DNA from: a bacterium DOLZORAL124_64_63
GTDB taxonomy: Bacteria > Krumholzibacteriota > Krumholzibacteriia > LZORAL124-64-63
Reading direction: 5' to 3'
NCBI GenBank assembly: GCA_002747875.1
Contig: PDQT01000082.1
Coordinates: 1 to 38,974 of the forward strand
Length of the DNA: 38,974 bases
Below are positions 11,706-33,428 of the stretch, piece by piece. Position 1 is the stretch's first letter, and each line of letters begins with the position of its first letter. Below the pieces are notes generated by a model. The model did not search any database and was not told where the DNA came from. It saw only the letters and a program-made list of their open reading frames with translations. A program made the translations under genes and the position numbers.

Positions 11706-13622
11706 CTACTTCAGCAGCATACCCACCGTCTTCTTCGGGTTGATCAGCAAGATCTCCGGATGCTCCGCGTTGGGATCGGCGCCCTGCTCGATCAGGGCCA
11801 CCACCTTCCGGGGCGTCAGAGACGGATCCACCGTGAACAGCTTGGCCGCCAGGTTGCAGACGTTGGGCGAGGCCATGCTGGTGCCCGACATCTTCATGGT
11901 GCCGCCGCCGGGCACCTCGCTCTCCACCTGGAAGCCGTTGGCGTACACCCGCACGTTCCGGCCACCGCTGGTGAAGCTGGTGGGATCGCCCGCTTGGTCG
12001 ACGGCGCCGACCACCATCAGGTTCGGCAGCGTGAAATTGCTGGGGATGACCACATCGAAGTCCACATCGTTGTCATCGTTGCCGGCGGCCGAGATGTAGA
12101 GGATCTCCGGTGTGGCCGCCATGGCGCTTTCCAGACCTTCGGCCAGGATATCGACCATCTCGCGGGCCATCTTCGCCCGTTCTTCAGCGCTTTCGCCCAC
12201 GCCGTTGTCCTCGAGCATGCCCTCGATCTCCTTGAAGGACCAGCCCCAGCTCATGTTCACCACGCGGACGCCGTTCTCGCGGAAATAGCGGGTGGTGGCG
12301 GCGTAGTCGGCGGCCAGGCGCCGGGCGATGTCGTAGGTCATGGGGCGTGAGGTCTGGTGGTAATCGAAGGTGATGCGGGCCACCAGAACCCGCGCGAAGG
12401 GATTGCCCTCGATGGCGATGCCCGCCACGTGGGTGCCGTGGCTGTACAGGCCGCCGAAACTGAGGCTGGTCAGCATGTCGCCCACTTCCTCGGAGGACAT
12501 CCGGGCCAGCTCGGCCCGCACCTCGGTGGCCGCGTCGCTGTCGATGGCGCTGGTCAGATCCGAGAACCCCTGCATGTACTGGAAGACATCCTCCAACTTG
12601 CCTTCCTGGTCGCCCAAGGGATGCAGCATGTGGGCGTTGGCGATGCCGTCGAAATCGAAGGCGATGCCGTGCACGTCATCCACCCAGCCGTTGCCGTCGG
12701 TGTCCGTGCCGTCGATCTTCTCGCCCTCGTTGACCCACATCTGATCGCCGAAGGCAGCCACATCCACGCCGGAATCCCAGATGCCGACCACCACCGGGGC
12801 CCGCCCCATCTTATCCCGGAAGGTGAACTCGCGGGCCGGCCAGATGTTATCCTTCTCCACGGCGTTGGCTTCCAGATAGCGGTCATACACCCGGGCGGCC
12901 ACCGGGTTCAGGGGCAACATGTGGTCGATGGCGTGGCGGATGCCCACGATGGTCGCCGCCTGATCGGCGGTCAGTTCACCGGTGGCGGCCACGGCGGGCT
13001 CCAGTTGGCTCTGCACCACGCCGCGCAGCAGATTCTCGCTCAGGAATTCGGCCCGGCCCTTGGAACTCTTGATGTTGTCCTGGACCACGCCGTAGGGCAG
13101 GGGATCGACCCTTTTGGCCAGCTCGTGGCCGTAGGCCTTTTCCAGATCGGCCTGGGCAGCGTCCGCCGGCAGGCTGCGCCGGGCCGCGATGTAGGCCCGT
13201 GTGCTCAGTCCGCTGGTCAGGCGGCTGGCTTCCTTATCCTCCAGGGCCCGCACCTTGTCCAGCATGGCCAGAGCCTCATCGTAGCGTCCGGCGCTGACAT
13301 ACAGGCCGGCCAGGGTGCTGTACTTGCCCTGCAGGGTGGAGGTGTCGTTGATCTCGTAGCGCGCCAGATCGTCCTCCAGATCCGCGACCATGTTCTGCCG
13401 CAGGGCCGCCAGGGCCTCCTGGTCGTCCAGCATCTCCGTGACCGTCCCGCTCAGGGGATAGGTGTGCACCGGGAGCTCATCCAGGCTCTGGATCTGGATC
13501 TTCTCCGGCGGCATCGTCTTCTCCACCGGCGTTTTGGCGTCATCGACCATCCTGCTGTGGCCCGCGCAGCCCGCCACCGCCAGCAAGGCGATGAGGGCCA
13601 ACACATGGATCATGGTTTTCAT
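11706..13622 (-). CDS. S8 (subtilisin-like) serine peptidase, predicted lipoprotein
   Basis: Lipobox LLAVAGC; triad GIWDSG / HGTHVAG / GTSMASP; oxyanion AAGN; ATG 13622 with AAGGAG RBS. Confidence 0.92.
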   Translation of the reverse strand: MKTMIHVLALIALLAVAGCAGHSRMVDDAKTPVEKTMPPEKIQIQSLDELPVHTYPLSGTVTEMLDDQEALAALRQNMVADLEDDLARYEINDTSTLQGKYSTLAGLYVSAGRYDEALAMLDKVRALEDKEASRLTSGLSTRAYIAARRSLPADAAQADLEKAYGHELAKRVDPLPYGVVQDNIKSSKGRAEFLSENLLRGVVQSQLEPAVAATGELTADQAATIVGIRHAIDHMLPLNPVAARVYDRYLEANAVEKDNIWPAREFTFRDKMGRAPVVVGIWDSGVDVAAFGDQMWVNEGEKIDGTDTDGNGWVDDVHGIAFDFDGIANAHMLHPLGDQEGKLEDVFQYMQGFSDLTSAIDSDAATEVRAELARMSSEEVGDMLTSLSFGGLYSHGTHVAGIAIEGNPFARVLVARITFDYHQTSRPMTYDIARRLAADYAATTRYFRENGVRVVNMSWGWSFKEIEGMLEDNGVGESAEERAKMAREMVDILAEGLESAMAATPEILYISAAGNDDNDVDFDVVIPSNFTLPNLMVVGAVDQAGDPTSFTSGGRNVRVYANGFQVESEVPGGGTMKMSGTSMASPNVCNLAAKLFTVDPSLTPRKVVALIEQGADPNAEHPEILLINPKKTVGMLLK

Positions 13623-13658
13623 GGGGATCTCCTTGGGAAGGTTGCACGCTTGTCGGGA

Positions 13659-13679
13659 ATGCAAGCTCATAGCTTGCAT
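13659..13679. promoter_or_regulatory. Perfect palindrome, candidate transcription factor operator
   Basis: ATGCAAGCT-CAT-AGCTTGCAT, AT-rich, between the divergent S8 peptidase and chemoreceptor-like genes. Confidence 0.55.
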
Positions 13680-13800
13680 ATTGCCGTCTGCAAGGCCGGA
13701 ATTCCACTTTTTCGGGCAAAAATCCTTCAATCCCGCCCCCCTGCGGCCGAAAACACGCAACGAGCACCCAGCATGATCGGGGAATCGACGGAGGAAGTAC

Positions 13801-16254
13801 ATGTCTTCGCGGCAGTTGATGAACATCGGGATGGGATCGGTGGCGATTCTGCTGGCCGTTTCCACAGGGACGGTTTTCACCACCCTGGGGGACCGACAGG
13901 CGGATCAGGTCCGGTTGGATCTGGCCGCAGGCCAGCAGGCGCTGGTGCAGGAAATCAACGCCAACGTGGAAAACCTGGACAACGCCGCCACCCTCCTGGA
14001 GGTGAACCGGGCCCGTGAAGCTCTGGGCGCCAGCATCCTGCGCTTCGATCGCAACCTGAACCACCTGCTTAAAGGCGGCAGCCTGACGACCGCCGACGGC
14101 CGGACCACCGAAATCGTCCCCCCCCGTTCCCGCACTACCCGGAAGATTCTGCAGGAGACCGCCGAGCTCTGGGTACAAACCGGCATGCCCCTGGCCGACC
14201 TGGCCGCCGGAGAGTTCAGCATCTACAGCAGCGCCGGCCAGGCCGCCGTCAGCGGTCTGCACGACAGCAGCGCCGCCCTCCAGCAACAGCTGGGCCAGGC
14301 GACCATGGCCATCACCGACTCCACCCACAGCCGCCGGCTGCGCGCCCAGGCCGCCCGTTGGATCAGCCTGGGCCTGACCGGCGCCTTCCTGGGCCTGGGG
14401 CTGATGCGTTTCAAGCCCGGCAAAGCCAAAGACAGCCCCACCACCGCGGCGGCCGACACGCCGGCAGCCGGAATCGCCCCACCCGCCACGACCGCGCAAA
14501 GCGCTGCGGAAACTGCTGCCGCCCCGCCGCTCGCCACCCGGCCGGCCGAGCGCATCTGGGAACGCCCCGCGCACCGGACCTACACCTCACCCGTGGATTT
14601 CGATGACGTCAGCGCCTCGGTGGACCAGCTTACGGTGGACATGAACACCATCGCCACCAGCACGGGCAAGATGCAACTGGCCATCGATTCGGTGGGCCAT
14701 GCCATGCAAGGTCTGCTGTTCAGCCTGAACCAGATGGCCCAGGACACGGCCGAGGGATACAAGATCGTGCGCGGCGCCAACAACGCCGCCACCTACACCG
14801 GCAGCGTGGCCGGAGAACTGACCGCATCGGCCCAGGAGATGAGTCGCGTGGTGGCGCGGGTCACCCAGCTGGCCATGAAGACCAGGCAGGTGGCCGGGCA
14901 GATCGAGGCCGAGGCCCTGGCCACCGGCAGCACCGGCGAGGCCTTCACCTCCGTGGTGGCCGGCGAGGTGCAGGGGCTGGCCCGCCAAACCAGCCAGGCC
15001 ACCGGCCAGATCGAGCAAACGGTGGCCGAGATCCTGGGCACCGCCCGCCAGTACGAGGAGGCCATCGGCCAGATCCTTAAAAACATCGGGGCCATCAACA
15101 AGGTGAGCCAGAACCTGGGCGAGTTGATGCTGCATCCCCCCGCCGCCGGGGTGGCCGGCACGCCTCTGCCCGGTGTGCCGTCCGTGCCTCTGGCTCCGCC
15201 GCCGGCCACCGCACCGCAACCCACCGCACCGCAACCCAGCGTAGCCGCGGAACCGGCCCCGGCCGCGAAATCGGCCCCCGCCGAACCCACTTCTCAGCCT
15301 GAGGCCCCGGCCCCGACCAAGGCCGAACCCGTCAGCGATGACGACTGGGGAAGCTCCGCCGACGACAACTGGGGTGGCACCCCCGCCGACCCCGCCCCCT
15401 CCGAGGCCACCGCCGACGCCATTGCCGAGACCGCCGCCAAGCAGGAGGAGAAGGTGGAGGGGAAAACGGAAGGCAATGTCTTCATCCTGGGTGGTGGCAA
15501 GAAAAAGAGAAAACCGATTCCCAAACTAGAACCGGAGACCAAGCCCGAGCCAGAGCCCAAACCAGAGCCAGAGCCCGAAGCCGCGGCCGAAGAGGAGGAA
15601 GAAGACAGCGGGACCAACATCTTCATGCTCAACAAGCCCAAGAAAAAGGTGCCTGCAAAGCCCAAGGCCGAGGAGTCCGCGCCCCAGCCTCCGGCAGAGC
15701 AGGAAACCGGGCAGAGCCAGGAGCCCGCAGCCCCCAAAGCCGAGGAAAAAGCCCCGGCGGAAAAAGCGCCCGAGGAAGAAAAGCCCGCTAAGGAAGAGGA
15801 GCCCGAAGAAGACGGCGGGACCAATATCTTCATGCTCAACAAGCCCAAGAAAAAGATACCCGCGAAGCCCGAGGACGAGGAATCCGCGCCCCAGCCTCCG
15901 GCAGAGCAGGAAACCGGGCAGAGCCAGGAGCCCGCAGCCCCCAAAGCCGAGGAAAAAGCTCCGGCGGAAAAAGCGCCCGAGGAAGAAAAGCCCGCCAAGG
16001 AAGAGGAACCCGAAGAAGACGGCGGGACCAATATCTTCATGCTCAACAAGCCCAAGAAAAAGATACCCGCGAAGCCCAAGGACGAGGGCCCCGCATCCGA
16101 GGGCCCCGCATCCGAAGCCCCGGCATCCGAGGACCCGGCCAAAGAAGAGAAGCCCGCCACCGTTCCCACCGACGACGACCCTCCCAAGGGCGGCAAGGGC
16201 GGGGACAGCGGCAGTGACGGCAACATCTTCATGCTCAACAAGCCCAAGAAATAG
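13801..16254 (+). CDS. Methyl-accepting chemotaxis-like membrane protein (PilJ/NarX-type sensor, degenerate MCP domain, long repetitive disordered tail)
   Basis: Two TM segments flanking LDLAAGQQALVQE...RFDRNLNHLLKGG...AELW; MCP-like GEAFTSVVAGEVQGLARQTSQATGQI; P/E/A/K-rich tail; GGAGG RBS. Confidence 0.8.
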   Translation: MSSRQLMNIGMGSVAILLAVSTGTVFTTLGDRQADQVRLDLAAGQQALVQEINANVENLDNAATLLEVNRAREALGASILRFDRNLNHLLKGGSLTTADGRTTEIVPPRSRTTRKILQETAELWVQTGMPLADLAAGEFSIYSSAGQAAVSGLHDSSAALQQQLGQATMAITDSTHSRRLRAQAARWISLGLTGAFLGLGLMRFKPGKAKDSPTTAAADTPAAGIAPPATTAQSAAETAAAPPLATRPAERIWERPAHRTYTSPVDFDDVSASVDQLTVDMNTIATSTGKMQLAIDSVGHAMQGLLFSLNQMAQDTAEGYKIVRGANNAATYTGSVAGELTASAQEMSRVVARVTQLAMKTRQVAGQIEAEALATGSTGEAFTSVVAGEVQGLARQTSQATGQIEQTVAEILGTARQYEEAIGQILKNIGAINKVSQNLGELMLHPPAAGVAGTPLPGVPSVPLAPPPATAPQPTAPQPSVAAEPAPAAKSAPAEPTSQPEAPAPTKAEPVSDDDWGSSADDNWGGTPADPAPSEATADAIAETAAKQEEKVEGKTEGNVFILGGGKKKRKPIPKLEPETKPEPEPKPEPEPEAAAEEEEEDSGTNIFMLNKPKKKVPAKPKAEESAPQPPAEQETGQSQEPAAPKAEEKAPAEKAPEEEKPAKEEEPEEDGGTNIFMLNKPKKKIPAKPEDEESAPQPPAEQETGQSQEPAAPKAEEKAPAEKAPEEEKPAKEEEPEEDGGTNIFMLNKPKKKIPAKPKDEGPASEGPASEAPASEDPAKEEKPATVPTDDDPPKGGKGGDSGSDGNIFMLNKPKK
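15206..15238. repeat. Perfect 15-bp tandem duplication (TAPQP x2)
   Basis: CCACCGCACCGCAAC x2 plus CCA. Confidence 0.9.
15600..16080 (+). repeat. 207-bp (69-codon) near-identical tandem repeat, about 2.3 copies
   Basis: NIFMLNKPK codons start at 15616, 15823 and 16030 (207-bp period); intervening sequence nearly identical. Confidence 0.92.
16083..16140. repeat. 15-bp tandem repeat (EGPAS EGPAS EAPAS EDPA)
   Basis: CGAGGGCCCCGCATC x2 perfect, then degenerate copies. Confidence 0.85.
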
Positions 16255-29954: not shown

Positions 29955-32900
29955 CTAATTCTTGATCTTACTCATATGCGGCTTGCTCTTATCCGGATAA
30001 GCCGGCGTGCCGGGAATATCCCACTTCCCCTTGGCATTCTCCAGCTGATCCAGCAAGTAGGCGATGGCCGCATCCAGCTGCGTATCCTCTCCGGCCACCA
30101 CGTCAGCGGGCATGTTCATCACCACGATATGCGGCTCCACGCCCCAGCCCTCGATGGGCCAAGTGCCGTCCAGCGTGAACAGACCGAACTGCGGCGGCGT
30201 GGTGGTGCCCCCGTCCACCAGACCCTGGTGCGGCTCGATGCCGATGCTGCCGCCCCAGGTGCGCATGCCCATGACCGTGGCCAGGCCCTTGCGCTTGATG
30301 GCCTCGGCAAAGAACTCGCCGTTGCTGCCGGTGTCCTCGTTGATCAGGACCACGAGGGGGCCGTGGAAATCCCGCTCGGGATTGCGGCCGGCCCGGCCCT
30401 CGCGCGGGATGGTCATGGACCACAGGGCGCGCTCCAGACGGTCGATGATCATGTCGCCGACGAAGCCGCCGCCGTTGTAGCGCTCGTCGATGATCATGGC
30501 CTCCTTGCCCGTCTGCGGGTACCAGCGGCGGCCGAATTCCACCAGCCCGTTGTCCATCATGTCCGGGATGTGCAGATAGCCGATGCGGCCGTCGCTCTTC
30601 GCCGTGACGTAGTCCAGGTTGCGGTCCATCCAGGCGCGATAACGCAGGCCCAGGTCGCTGCCCAGGGTGCGCACCCGGTGGGTGACGGCGCCCCTGGGGC
30701 TGGGTTTGCGGTTGGTCGTCAGGGTGACCATGCGGCCGGCCTTGTCCACCAGGTGGGCGTAGACGTTGTCGCCCTTGGGGATCTCCACACCGTCGATGGC
30801 GATGAGGTAGTCTCCCTCGCGCACATCCACGCCGGGCTCCGTCAGGGGCGAGCGGTACCGCGGGTCCCAGCTCACGCCCGGCACGATGTCCGTGATACGG
30901 TAATAATCGGCCTTCTCATCCGTGGCGAAGCCGCAACCCAACAAACCGGTGGACACCCAGTCGCCGCGGTCGCCATGGTCCCCACCGTAGATATAGGTGT
31001 GGCCGATGTTCAGCTCGGCAATCAGTTCTCCAATGAGATAGTTCAGATCCGAACGCGTCCCGCAGCCGGCCACGAAGGGCGCGAACTTGTCGTGCATGGC
31101 CTGCCAATCCACACCGTGCATGCCCGCGTCATAGAACCAATCGCGCTGGATGCGCCAGGCCTCGTCGAAAATCTGCCGGTACTCGGCCAGCCGGTCGATG
31201 CGCAGCTTCAGGGCGCCCACATCCACCTGGCCGTCCCCCGCCTCGGCGGGCTGGCCGGCATCCACCACGCCCACGTTGGCACCGGCGCGGTAGATCAGCT
31301 TCTGCCCGTCGCTGCTCAGATGGTAGTTGGCGATGCCGATCATCAGATCCGTCAGCGCGGCATCGTCCAGGTTGTAGCCCACCAGATCCAGGGCGCCGCC
31401 CGTGTGATCGTCCACGTTCTGGTACTTGAGGAACTCCGGATCGTTCTTGCGCAGCATGACGAAGCCGCCGTCGATGGCCTCCAGGCGGAAGTAGTTGCCC
31501 GGTTCCACGCCTTCGCACGCCAAGATCCGGTTGCCGATGCCTTCCAGATCGATGACCGTTTTGCCGTCCTTCTCGGCCTCCTCTTTCTCCTTCTTGTCCG
31601 CGGTCACCACCACGTCGGGCTTGTAGAAGGGCGAGCGCCGGCCGTCGCGCAGCAGGACCAAGTAAGGCCGGGCCATCTTCAAGAAGACATGGTTCTGGTC
31701 CTGGCGGCCCATGATCGGATTGAAGGTGCGGTTGGACAGGAAGTACAGGTAGGCGCCGTCCTCGCTGAAGCTGGGCGACCAGCTGGTGGCCATGCCGTCG
31801 GTCAGCTGGTGCGTCTGCCGCTTCTTGGTGTCGTACAGGTGGATGGTTTCGTTCATGTTGCCGTTCTGGCGCGTGTAGGCCACCCAGCGGCTGTCCGGCG
31901 ACCAGACGTAATCCATGATGCCCCAGCGCTCCCAGGCATCGTCGTACAGGCCCTGGGCGATGACGGTGGTGGCGCCCTTGTCCACATCCACCAGATTCAG
32001 GCGCAGGTACTTGTCGCTGAACAGGAGGTGCCGGCTGTCCGGCGACCAGACGATGGGGTTGGTGAAGGCGAAGTCCCCATCGGTCAGCTGCTTCCACTCG
32101 CCAAGGCCCGTCTGGTCCGAGAGGTAGAGTTGTTCCTCGCCCGTGCGGTCGCTGACGAAGGCGATCCACCGGCCGTCCGGCGACCAGACGGCGTTGCGCT
32201 CGCGGCTGCCGCTGGTGCGGGTCAGGTTCACGGGATCGCCCTCATCCGTGGGCAGGTTCAGGATCTCGCCGCGGGCTTCGATCAGCGCGCGCTCCCCGCC
32301 GGGAGACAGCCGGAAGCTGCCGACGGCGGCGTTGGGGGTGATGAGATCCTCGCGCACGTGGCGACGATCCGAAGGGATACTGATGGCCACGTCACGCACC
32401 TGGCCGCTCGCCAGGTCCAGCACCTCCAGGCCCGCGCCGTGCTGGAACACGATGCGCCCATCGCCCAGGCTGGGGTACTTGGCGTCGTACTCCGTGAAAA
32501 AGGTCAGCCGCCGCACTTCTCCCGTCTTCACGTTCTGGCCGTAGATATTCAGCGTGCCGTCCTCGCGGTCGCTGGTGTAGTAGATGATATCCCCGTCCCA
32601 CATGGGGAAGTTGTCCGTGCCTTCCCAGTCCGTCAGCTGGGTGATGCTGCCGTCGCTGAAGTCGGCCACCCAAATATCCTGGGCCATGCCGCCCTCGTAG
32701 CGTTTCCAGTTGCGCATCTCCCGGCCGATGCGGTTGTAGGCCACACCGCGGTGATCCGGGGCGATGGATGCCAGGCCGGCCCGGTCCAGCGGCAGACGCC
32801 GAGGCATGCCGCCATCGATGGGGTAACGGTACAGTTCGCTGGCGCGGCTGGGGTATTCCCGGGTGGAGCGCACGATCACGCCCTGCCCGTCCGGGCACCA

Positions 32901-33248
32901 GTCCACCATCAGATCTCTGCCGGGATGGAAGGTCAGCCGGCGGGGCACACCGCCGGTGGCGGGCATGACGTAGACATCGCTGCCGCCGTCATAGCTACCG
33001 GTGAAGGCCAGCCAGCGCCCATCGGGGCTGAACTTGGCCGCCAACTCGGTGCCCTCGTGCGCCGTGATGCGCCGGGCTTCGCCCCCGGTGACCGGGACCA
33101 GCCAAAGGTCCCCCTCGTAGGTGAAGACGATGCCGCTATCGCTGATATCCGCGTAACGCATGACGTAGCCCGGTGCCGCGTCGTCGGCCAGGGCGAAGCC
33201 GGCCAGCAGGACGGCCAAAGCCAGAAACAGGAAATGGTGGCGGGTCAC
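29955..33248 (-). CDS. Tricorn protease homolog (S41 family; beta-propellers, PDZ, TSP core), exported
   Basis: Signal peptide; IVFTYEGDLW, FSPDGRW repeats, ELNIGHTY, IGYLHIPDM, DERYNGGG, GSNGE nucleophile, IEGWGVEP; GTG 33248 with GGAGG RBS. Confidence 0.95.
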   Translation of the reverse strand: MTRHHFLFLALAVLLAGFALADDAAPGYVMRYADISDSGIVFTYEGDLWLVPVTGGEARRITAHEGTELAAKFSPDGRWLAFTGSYDGGSDVYVMPATGGVPRRLTFHPGRDLMVDWCPDGQGVIVRSTREYPSRASELYRYPIDGGMPRRLPLDRAGLASIAPDHRGVAYNRIGREMRNWKRYEGGMAQDIWVADFSDGSITQLTDWEGTDNFPMWDGDIIYYTSDREDGTLNIYGQNVKTGEVRRLTFFTEYDAKYPSLGDGRIVFQHGAGLEVLDLASGQVRDVAISIPSDRRHVREDLITPNAAVGSFRLSPGGERALIEARGEILNLPTDEGDPVNLTRTSGSRERNAVWSPDGRWIAFVSDRTGEEQLYLSDQTGLGEWKQLTDGDFAFTNPIVWSPDSRHLLFSDKYLRLNLVDVDKGATTVIAQGLYDDAWERWGIMDYVWSPDSRWVAYTRQNGNMNETIHLYDTKKRQTHQLTDGMATSWSPSFSEDGAYLYFLSNRTFNPIMGRQDQNHVFLKMARPYLVLLRDGRRSPFYKPDVVVTADKKEKEEAEKDGKTVIDLEGIGNRILACEGVEPGNYFRLEAIDGGFVMLRKNDPEFLKYQNVDDHTGGALDLVGYNLDDAALTDLMIGIANYHLSSDGQKLIYRAGANVGVVDAGQPAEAGDGQVDVGALKLRIDRLAEYRQIFDEAWRIQRDWFYDAGMHGVDWQAMHDKFAPFVAGCGTRSDLNYLIGELIAELNIGHTYIYGGDHGDRGDWVSTGLLGCGFATDEKADYYRITDIVPGVSWDPRYRSPLTEPGVDVREGDYLIAIDGVEIPKGDNVYAHLVDKAGRMVTLTTNRKPSPRGAVTHRVRTLGSDLGLRYRAWMDRNLDYVTAKSDGRIGYLHIPDMMDNGLVEFGRRWYPQTGKEAMIIDERYNGGGFVGDMIIDRLERALWSMTIPREGRAGRNPERDFHGPLVVLINEDTGSNGEFFAEAIKRKGLATVMGMRTWGGSIGIEPHQGLVDGGTTTPPQFGLFTLDGTWPIEGWGVEPHIVVMNMPADVVAGEDTQLDAAIAYLLDQLENAKGKWDIPGTPAYPDKSKPHMSKIKN

Positions 33249-33428
33249 GGGAAAACCTCCAGGCGGGAAGGCCCAATGCCCGCCGGCGGGTATCACCACC
33301 GGCCGGCGGGAAAGAGCGCCATTTGTTGCCGCGGTAAAATGTGGCACCGGCCGGGAGTTTACACAAGAGGCGCCATGCGCTACGTTGCGCGCAACCAGCC
33401 CCTCGCCACCCTAGAATCGGAGCCGTCC

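Follow-up and report, generated by a model that had tools for sequence, protein, structure and literature searches.

The window analysed here is the whole stretch of 38,974 nucleotides from the bacterium DOLZORAL124_64_63 of the phylum Krumholzibacteriota (contig PDQT01000082.1, assembly GCA_002747875.1), and the subject of this work is a gene on its forward strand whose open reading frame (ORF) encodes a predicted inner-membrane protein of 817 aa. On one side lies a divergently oriented S8 subtilase gene and on the other, on the opposite strand, an orphan ORF and a ResB-CcsA fusion gene (Table 1). The protein joins a chemoreceptor-derived core to a long acidic tail in which one short motif, NIFMLNKPKK, recurs, and our main finding is that this motif is conserved among the homologs of the protein, within a single taxonomic family. 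Labels and coordinates are those of this contig stretch, and amino-acid numbering follows the 817-aa ORF.

In the AlphaFold2 monomer model, which was built from an 84-sequence family alignment, and in the alignment with paralogs, two transmembrane helices are predicted to flank a periplasmic ligand-binding domain, a topology that matches the layout of methyl-accepting chemotaxis proteins (MCPs). The signalling domain was modelled as three long helices (aa 267-313, 317-375 and 378-444) with a predicted local distance difference test (pLDDT) score of about 77. For the sensor domain, Foldseek listed the ligand-binding domains of NarQ, McpN and Tsr, all as weak matches (E ≥ 7e-3), and for the whole model it returned nothing at E ≤ 0.001; in the ESM Atlas the tail had no usable feature match, with every structure row at a template-modelling score of 0.24 or below.

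Table 1. Predicted features of the repeat-tailed gene and its neighbours in the window
Feature	Residues	Window position	Strand	Basis
Whole gene, chemoreceptor-derived inner-membrane protein with repeat-bearing tail	817 aa	13801..16254	+	ORF; 93 homologs at E ≤ 2.6e-46
Predicted transmembrane helix 1	aa 9-29	13825..13887	+	Hydrophobic stretch inside long AlphaFold2 helix 2-60
Predicted periplasmic four-helix-bundle sensor domain, PilJ/NarQ/McpN-like	aa 30-186	13888..14358	+	pLDDT 86-98; collinear with PilJ-type paralogs
Predicted transmembrane helix 2	aa 187-204	14359..14412	+	Hydrophobic end of AlphaFold2 helix 144-204
Disordered P/A/T-rich linker	aa 215-261	14443..14583	+	pLDDT 35-48; opposite HAMP of paralog in alignment
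Truncated, diverged signalling domain, hairpin tip near aa 375	aa 262-444	14584..15132	+	Weak Pfam MCPsignal match; family profile against PDB
Acidic disordered tail, 373 aa	aa 445-817	15133..16251	+	pLDDT below 50 except aa 533-551; net charge -32
Two acidic-Trp motifs, DDDWG and DDNWG	aa 513-517 and 521-525	15337..15375	+	Sequence
Short conserved acidic helix	aa 533-551	15397..15453	+	pLDDT about 62-66; relatives' consensus
Proximal motif variant GNVFILGGGKKK	aa 558-569	15472..15507	+	Sequence
Motif copy 1, NIFMLNKPKK	aa 606-615	15616..15645	+	Sequence
Motif copy 2, inside 207-bp duplication	aa 675-684	15823..15852	+	Sequence, repeat search
Motif copy 3, inside 207-bp duplication	aa 744-753	16030..16059	+	Sequence, repeat search
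K-P-A-T-V-P-T-D-D-D element, before last copy	aa 784-793	16150..16179	+	Family pattern
Motif copy 4, extreme C-terminus	aa 808-817	16222..16251	+	Sequence
S8 subtilase		11706..13883	-	
Orphan ORF	250 aa	16335..17087	-	
ResB-CcsA fusion	1166 aa	17032..20532	-	
TPR, sigma-54 AAA+ activator and helix-turn-helix protein	830 aa	21427..23919	+	
Open frame with DcuC-type carrier match	1632 aa	29976..34874	+	

Motif copies in the tail

The length of the tail agrees with the approximately 370 aa given in the first-pass annotation of this DNA, and, as that annotation had also stated, proline (69), glutamate (61), alanine (57) and lysine (46) are its most frequent residues. The same annotation had reported four copies of NIFMLNKPKK, the last forming the C-terminus, a fifth variant upstream and two DD(D/N)WG motifs, all of which we recovered, the four copies at exactly the codons given. 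The window protein carries one proximal variant (GNVFILGGGKKK) and four distal copies, placed some 40-70 residues apart, and the acidic/Gly patch described before each copy was seen at every one of them. A 207-bp tandem duplication spans positions 15598-16087 (2.4 copies, 95% matches). The 30 nt of motif DNA are 97-100% identical among all copies, while the 60 nt upstream of copy 4 share just 37-38% identity with the same region of copies 1-3, bearing out the earlier observation that the last copy is exact in spite of flanks unrelated to the duplication; in that 60-nt region copy 1 and copies 2 and 3 are 57% identical. Each motif consists of four hydrophobic residues and then three to five Lys/Arg, contains Pro but no Trp, and is modelled by AlphaFold2 as coil and not as an amphipathic helix.

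Conservation of the motif among homologs

A homolog search over 5.8 billion clustered proteins gave 95 matches among 8,000 candidates scored, of which 93 reached E ≤ 2.6e-46 and two were weak matches to ordinary receptors. The named ones among the 93 homologs are called 'hypothetical', and their taxon labels read Krumholzibacteria, Krumholzibacteria-like or unnamed bacteria. Motif counts were taken over 94 proteins, that is, these homologs and the window protein. With a loose core pattern, 87 of the 94 carry from one to six copies, 262 instances in total, of a motif of about 14 residues, G-S-x-G-N-[VI]-F-M-L-N-K-P-K-K (no copy in 7 proteins, one in 7, two in 28, three in 21, four in 21, five in 8 and six in 2). 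The seven copy-less proteins are short (470-661 aa), several having Arg/Pro-rich ends that resemble truncated or frame-shifted calls. The last copy lies no more than 8 residues from the C-terminus in 67/94 proteins, and others end in related variants, for example K-K-N-F-I-M-L-N-S-P-K-K-P-K or P-T-V-I-R-L-N-K-S-K-K-T-D, or in an acidic E-T-V-P-x-x-D-D. From start to start, successive copies are a median of 57 aa apart (range 37-130), 98% of the 175 spacers between them are net negative, and these spacers are unalignable among orthologs, which are 36-66% identical. The motif is neither lost in orthologs nor diverging in step with its linker, the two outcomes that the first-pass annotation had set against its own proposal, and a comparison of copy number, which it had suggested, gave the variation described above. 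In other genomes the motif DNA has undergone synonymous codon changes that leave the peptide unchanged. These conservation data exclude neutral repetition. NIFMLNKPKK is the core of a short linear motif that has been conserved within a disordered tail.

Outside the search pattern, the informative positions are -4 to -1, occupied by G-S-N-G, and +5 to +9, occupied by N-K-P-K-K. Sequence information reaches background by -6 and +11, so that the spacers carry none beyond 2-6 residues from the motif. In a less circular test, in which the downstream N-[KR]-P-[KR] alone served as anchor, the upstream residues at 126 sites were N in 121, I or V in 122 (L never), F in 121, M in 109 and L in all 126. 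Such a strict pattern (Asn, a beta-branched residue, Phe, Met, Leu, Asn and Pro in a Lys cluster) argues for a shaped binding pocket over a generic hydrophobic or electrostatic contact. The same counts bear on the possibility that the copies are membrane staples, with the I-F-M-L core in the inner leaflet, the lysines on anionic head groups and the acidic spacers looped off, so that a membrane patch would be organised or sensed and no protein recruited. The run of hydrophobic residues ahead of the basic cluster has the right makeup, the protein is already anchored in the membrane, the acidic spacers would be repelled by an anionic surface, and for the basic linker segments of classical receptors, in the excerpt of a recent preprint, contact with lipid head groups or with the signalling domain is suggested (bioRxiv 10.1101/2024.03.07.583918). 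Lipid anchors, however, usually tolerate hydrophobic swaps, which the anchored counts hardly show, and a Pro-containing motif modelled as coil, with variants kept by rank across orthologs, fits a staple poorly; we consider this explanation unlikely.

Those variants depend on the position of the copy in the tail. In 80/80 proteins the first copy carries V at +1, and in 49/80 its core runs on into G-G or G-K, whereas among later copies I stands at +1 in 113/175 and N-K comes after the core in 123/175. By these counts the first copy is a distinct, conserved and rank-specific form, which suggests graded or distinct affinities among the copies. It also bears on whether the copies are homotypic stickers, pairing through the beta-prone N-[IV]-F-M-L-N core or through Lys clusters with acidic spacers, and gathering the protein into a membrane cluster or condensate that would replace lost array contacts. 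The layout of two to six basic stickers and acidic spacers follows the sticker-spacer concept as outlined in part of a published account (PMC6822780), the beta-prone core is flanked by charged and Pro/Gly residues, and the canonical tip sequence of the paralogs has been lost. Copies in one protein would then be expected to drift together, but the proximal and distal forms stay distinct across the 80 proteins; moreover, the single-copy proteins (7/94) would be unable to cross-link, and a net charge of -32 works against self-association of the tail. We give this explanation a rather small probability, somewhat below that of the staples.

Two further elements of the tail recur in the family. The short acidic helix has the consensus E-V-A-E-E-T-x-A-A-I-E-E-x-A in relatives, T537 being nearly invariant, and an element of the E-P-V-T-V-P-A-D-D type stands 26-35 aa from the C-terminus in 25/94 proteins by a strict pattern, with looser forms seen by eye in many more.

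Restriction of the motif to one taxonomic family

A search of the proteome for the motif, also proposed at first pass, led back to this ORF alone. In the genome that holds the window (3.36 Mb, 93% complete), both the six-frame search with a strict pattern and a weight matrix run over all frames of at least 80 aa (matches above 14 bits) placed 5/5 matches inside it. At the DNA level, a pattern for N-[IVM]-F-M-L-N-K-P matched in 24/208 genomes of the phylum, all of one taxonomic family, and in each of the 24 the matches cluster, a few hundred bases apart at most, on a single strand of one contig; a reversed-pattern control had no match in the 208 genomes. The family profile matched at E ≤ 1e-10 in at least 52 of the 90 other genomes of the taxonomic family, at least 45 of them strongly (E ≤ 1e-90), and outside it gave weak receptor-type matches alone, in at least 5 genomes. 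A longer pattern found 11 loci in the JGI metagenome collection, nine with the N-terminal or signalling part of the family in the same locus and two cut by contig ends, and none of the 11 placed the motif in another protein. An apparent gene loss in the close relative G164, whose copy seemed truncated, was rejected, the fragment being the end of a contig. In open-access papers and preprints, supplements excluded, we found no mention of this family, nor of any chemoreceptor-like protein whose tail repeats a motif.

Chemoreceptor ancestry of the core

The MCP-like domain named at first pass is real in its homology to the chemoreceptor tip and weak in its score, since Pfam MCPsignal matched aa 337-427 with 26.4 bits, below the cut-off of 34.6 (29.2 bits in the genome search); by the Pfam threshold the protein is not a regular MCP. 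NCBIfam gave weak chemoreceptor matches and nothing else. All of the 37 relatives compared with MCPsignal matched it, four above the cut-off, and one relative (P0001) reached the Pfam PilJ cut-off with 26.6 bits. Searched against the PDB, the family profile matched five sequences, all chemoreceptors and all at the hairpin tip (profile positions 335-408; best E 4.4e-8), and the signalling domain is the best-conserved part of the family.

The weaker matches of the profile in the same taxonomic family are canonical receptors (Pfam PilJ 55 bits, HAMP 34.8, MCPsignal 121.8). The window protein is collinear with such paralogs over residues 1-425 at 27% identity (E 8e-23, search of six sequences), the HAMP region of the paralog facing the P/A/T-rich linker of the window protein; the tip aligned with a one-residue shift and does not retain the canonical sequence of the paralogs. 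After the tip, the ordered C-terminal arm has 70 aa, against 154-164 aa in six paralogs, and the full-length antiparallel signalling bundle with the methylation-helix region on both arms is not present in the AlphaFold2 model, which is disordered from aa 445. From the collinear alignment, the linker facing HAMP and the short C-terminal arm, it follows that the protein is a derived PilJ-type chemoreceptor that no longer has HAMP or the distal half of its signalling bundle and keeps the sensor and the tip. PilJ-type MCPs are its nearest sequence relatives and share its N-terminus through sensor and tip and its membrane topology, but the paralogs have HAMP, a full signalling domain with a C-terminal arm of roughly 160 aa and a canonical tip, and lack the repeat tail. 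The genome also gave eight matches to canonical receptors (E 1e-36 to 1e-51) and eight to CheW domains, and it encodes CheA domains, one ordinary CheR of 286 aa, PilM-PilN-PilO and FliM.

Acidic-Trp motifs and the known receptor tether

Ahead of the repeats, D-x-W-G is kept about 15 residues before the acidic helix in some 24 closer relatives, and it resembles the ends of ordinary receptors in this lineage. In the same genome, 4/7 complete canonical receptor C-termini end in D-N-W-G-Q, D-S-G-W, E-S-G-W or D-S-W-G (contigs C73, C120, C122 and C182; loci L083, L092 and L104), and these four receptors account for four of the only six acidic-Trp ends among 5,699 stop-ended frames of at least 200 aa. 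Across the genus, 30 receptor loci (L080-L109, one cut) provided 29 complete C-termini, of which 15 have Trp within the last five residues (11 flagged by script and four more, of the G-W-P/A-E/S form, read by eye), nine end in V-I-P-L-x-D-D-F or L-I-E-I types and five in neither; three receptors also have an internal D-D-W-G-G-like motif. The end types, which include G-W-P-E and D-D-W-A-L-V, all differ from the classical pentapeptide pattern. Both the acidic-Trp and the V-I-P-L-x-D-D-F / L-I-E-I ends may be the CheR/CheB tethers of the phylum. Because DD(D/N)WG matches the acidic-Trp ends, the tail can be said to open like an ordinary receptor tail of its lineage, and by analogy its Trp motifs would be likelier CheR/CheB docking sites than NIFMLNKPKK. 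The comparison with pentapeptide tethers made in the first-pass annotation suits DD(D/N)WG better than it suits NIFMLNKPKK.

According to the excerpt of the preprint cited above, classical receptors carry a single pentapeptide that binds CheR/CheB with high affinity and is borne on a linker of 29-91 unstructured residues (bioRxiv 10.1101/2024.03.07.583918). As far as that excerpt describes receptors of the NWETF type, they share with the window protein the order of core, unstructured linker and, behind an acidic segment, a short conserved peptide that ends the chain, and the presumed logic of a raised local concentration of a soluble partner. They differ in having one pentapeptide, against two to six copies of a basic, Trp-free motif of 14 residues in a tail of 200-390 residues, and here the core lacks HAMP and the methylation-helix region, so that CheR or CheB would find hardly any substrate in cis. 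The terminal motif, being basic, Trp-free and repeated, falls outside the definition of a single aromatic/acidic C-terminal pentapeptide.

A second likeness, one of layout, is to the polar hubs HubP and FimV, in which a membrane anchor is also followed by a long, acidic and repetitive cytoplasmic region. That region is thought to gather several client proteins. The repeats of the hubs are units of 40-50 residues, unlike the short linear motifs in unalignable spacers found here; Pfam and NCBIfam scans of the whole protein detected no LysM or FimV-type domain, and the searches run showed no homology to HubP/FimV.

Gene neighbourhood

The S8 peptidase gene, coding for a lipoprotein, is divergently adjacent in 20/37 related loci. 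In the window its product begins with a lipoprotein-type signal, some 270 aa at its N-terminal end match no family, and the listed ORF of 725 aa probably starts too far upstream, overlapping the start of the receptor-like gene. The head-to-head arrangement, in the window and in those 20 loci, would suit repeats that serve as cleavage or degradation signals for the S8 subtilase, or for a cytoplasmic AAA+ protease, and hydrophobic and dibasic sites are typical subtilase targets. Yet the tail follows a cytoplasmic domain of chemoreceptor type, while the S8 protein should be extracytoplasmic because of the lipoprotein-type signal at its start; internal degrons in up to six copies would have no known logic, and conserved gene order alone can explain the link. 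This explanation is very improbable.

Downstream, the ResB-CcsA fusion, which combines ResB-like and CcsA-like cytochrome c assembly domains, is convergent in 21/37 loci, many loci being cut before it. In 18/37 loci (e.g. L002:10163-11653) the receptor-like gene is followed, after 27 nt, by a same-strand gene for some 470 aa, whose N-terminus we take to resemble aromatic-amino-acid decarboxylases. The window has no such gene, and the genome holds only a 27% identical paralog, on contig C70. Its place is occupied by the orphan ORF, which matched no Pfam family, had no counterpart at any of the 37 related loci and occurs just once in the genome. Farther away, the 1632-aa open frame has one strong Pfam match, to a DcuC-type carrier (residues 1162-1627), and its first 1,100 residues probably lie outside the gene or overlap the opposite-strand gene at 29955-33347. 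Matches to the sigma-54 promoter consensus in the window numbered 18, against 20.4 expected, with none in the intergenic region between the S8 gene and the receptor-like gene.

In 13 genomes a co-oriented ortholog of the protein with TPR, sigma-54 AAA+ activator and helix-turn-helix regions lies downstream of the receptor-like gene, at a distance of 5-17 kb. As a peptide-binding candidate for the tail it fits poorly: a genus that lacks the family has orthologs as well (3/8 genomes), and four genera with the family hold just paralogs of 35-40% identity. In two genomes (G088 and G084), a paralogous TPR activator lies 2-5 kb from a canonical PilJ-type paralog.

Discussion

We regard a multivalent tether built of short linear motifs as the most likely reading of the tail, and hold it with about even confidence. 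Each motif would be a docking peptide for a folded soluble partner; with several copies on every chain, avidity would serve to capture that partner and keep it at the membrane beside the receptor-like core, the number of copies being doubled if the protein dimerises like its ancestors. With its acidic spacers the tail would stay extended, at a distance from both the anionic membrane and the acidic receptor body. From the core outward, the tail presents a Pro/Ala linker, the acidic-Trp motifs, the short conserved helix and finally the repeated family-specific motif. Here we infer a cytoplasmic tail from chemoreceptor topology, dimerisation from ancestry, and protein binding. Of the multivalent scaffold recruiting a partner that was proposed at first pass, the conserved motif in a disordered tail stands, and the recruitment would be its likely function.

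Several observations weigh against a tether. No partner emerged from the candidates considered here, among which were also sliding-clamp, FtsZ-tail-binding, DnaK and ParA-type proteins. None of the adjoining genes encodes a plausible cytoplasmic binder of the tail, and the hydrophobic core with its Lys cluster also resembles a membrane-binding patch or a self-associating sticker. No motif docked onto the folded parts of the protein itself in the AlphaFold2 monomer model, binding in trans being outside the scope of that model. All genomes involved are metagenome bins of uncultured bacteria, which bears on expression and localisation. Phyletic profiles do not single out CheW or FliM, present in 82/91 and 88/91 genomes of the taxonomic family, respectively. 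PilM, considered for a PilN-like docking because the closest paralogs are PilJ-type receptors, has an ortholog in all 11 genera with a strong family match, and the family occurs in 0/8 genera without PilM, a loose fit that may be a clade effect; co-folding of PilM (alignment A2) with tail residues 776-817, in a single job, gave a score of 0.02 and a mark of 0.32 and is uninformative either way.

Much of eukaryotic signalling is wired through short linear motifs in disordered tails. To our knowledge, few have been documented in bacteria, where the chemoreceptor pentapeptide is one of the textbook cases. Read as a tether, the present family would extend the idea of the receptor tail to a repeated, chemically different and newly evolved motif, strictly conserved in one family-level lineage of an uncultured phylum. 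Compared with the known tether, the receptor is one without a methylation region, and the motif coexists with a relic of the ordinary tail motif of the lineage. It also offers a small test object, with a peptide of 14 residues, a defined proteome and a natural copy number of one to six.

A bolder and rather improbable version is that the chemoreceptor has dropped kinase-array signalling and that, on binding of a periplasmic ligand, the tail would capture or release an oligomeric cytoplasmic client through its several motifs, alongside the acidic-Trp motif; this client could be a chemotaxis adaptation enzyme or a TPR-bearing sigma-54 activator such as that encoded 5-17 kb downstream. If true, it would represent a CheA-independent output for the chemoreceptor fold and a new kind of bacterial signalling hub. 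The family opens the question of how multivalent tethers evolve in bacteria, and of what the chemoreceptor fold does without a classical kinase array.

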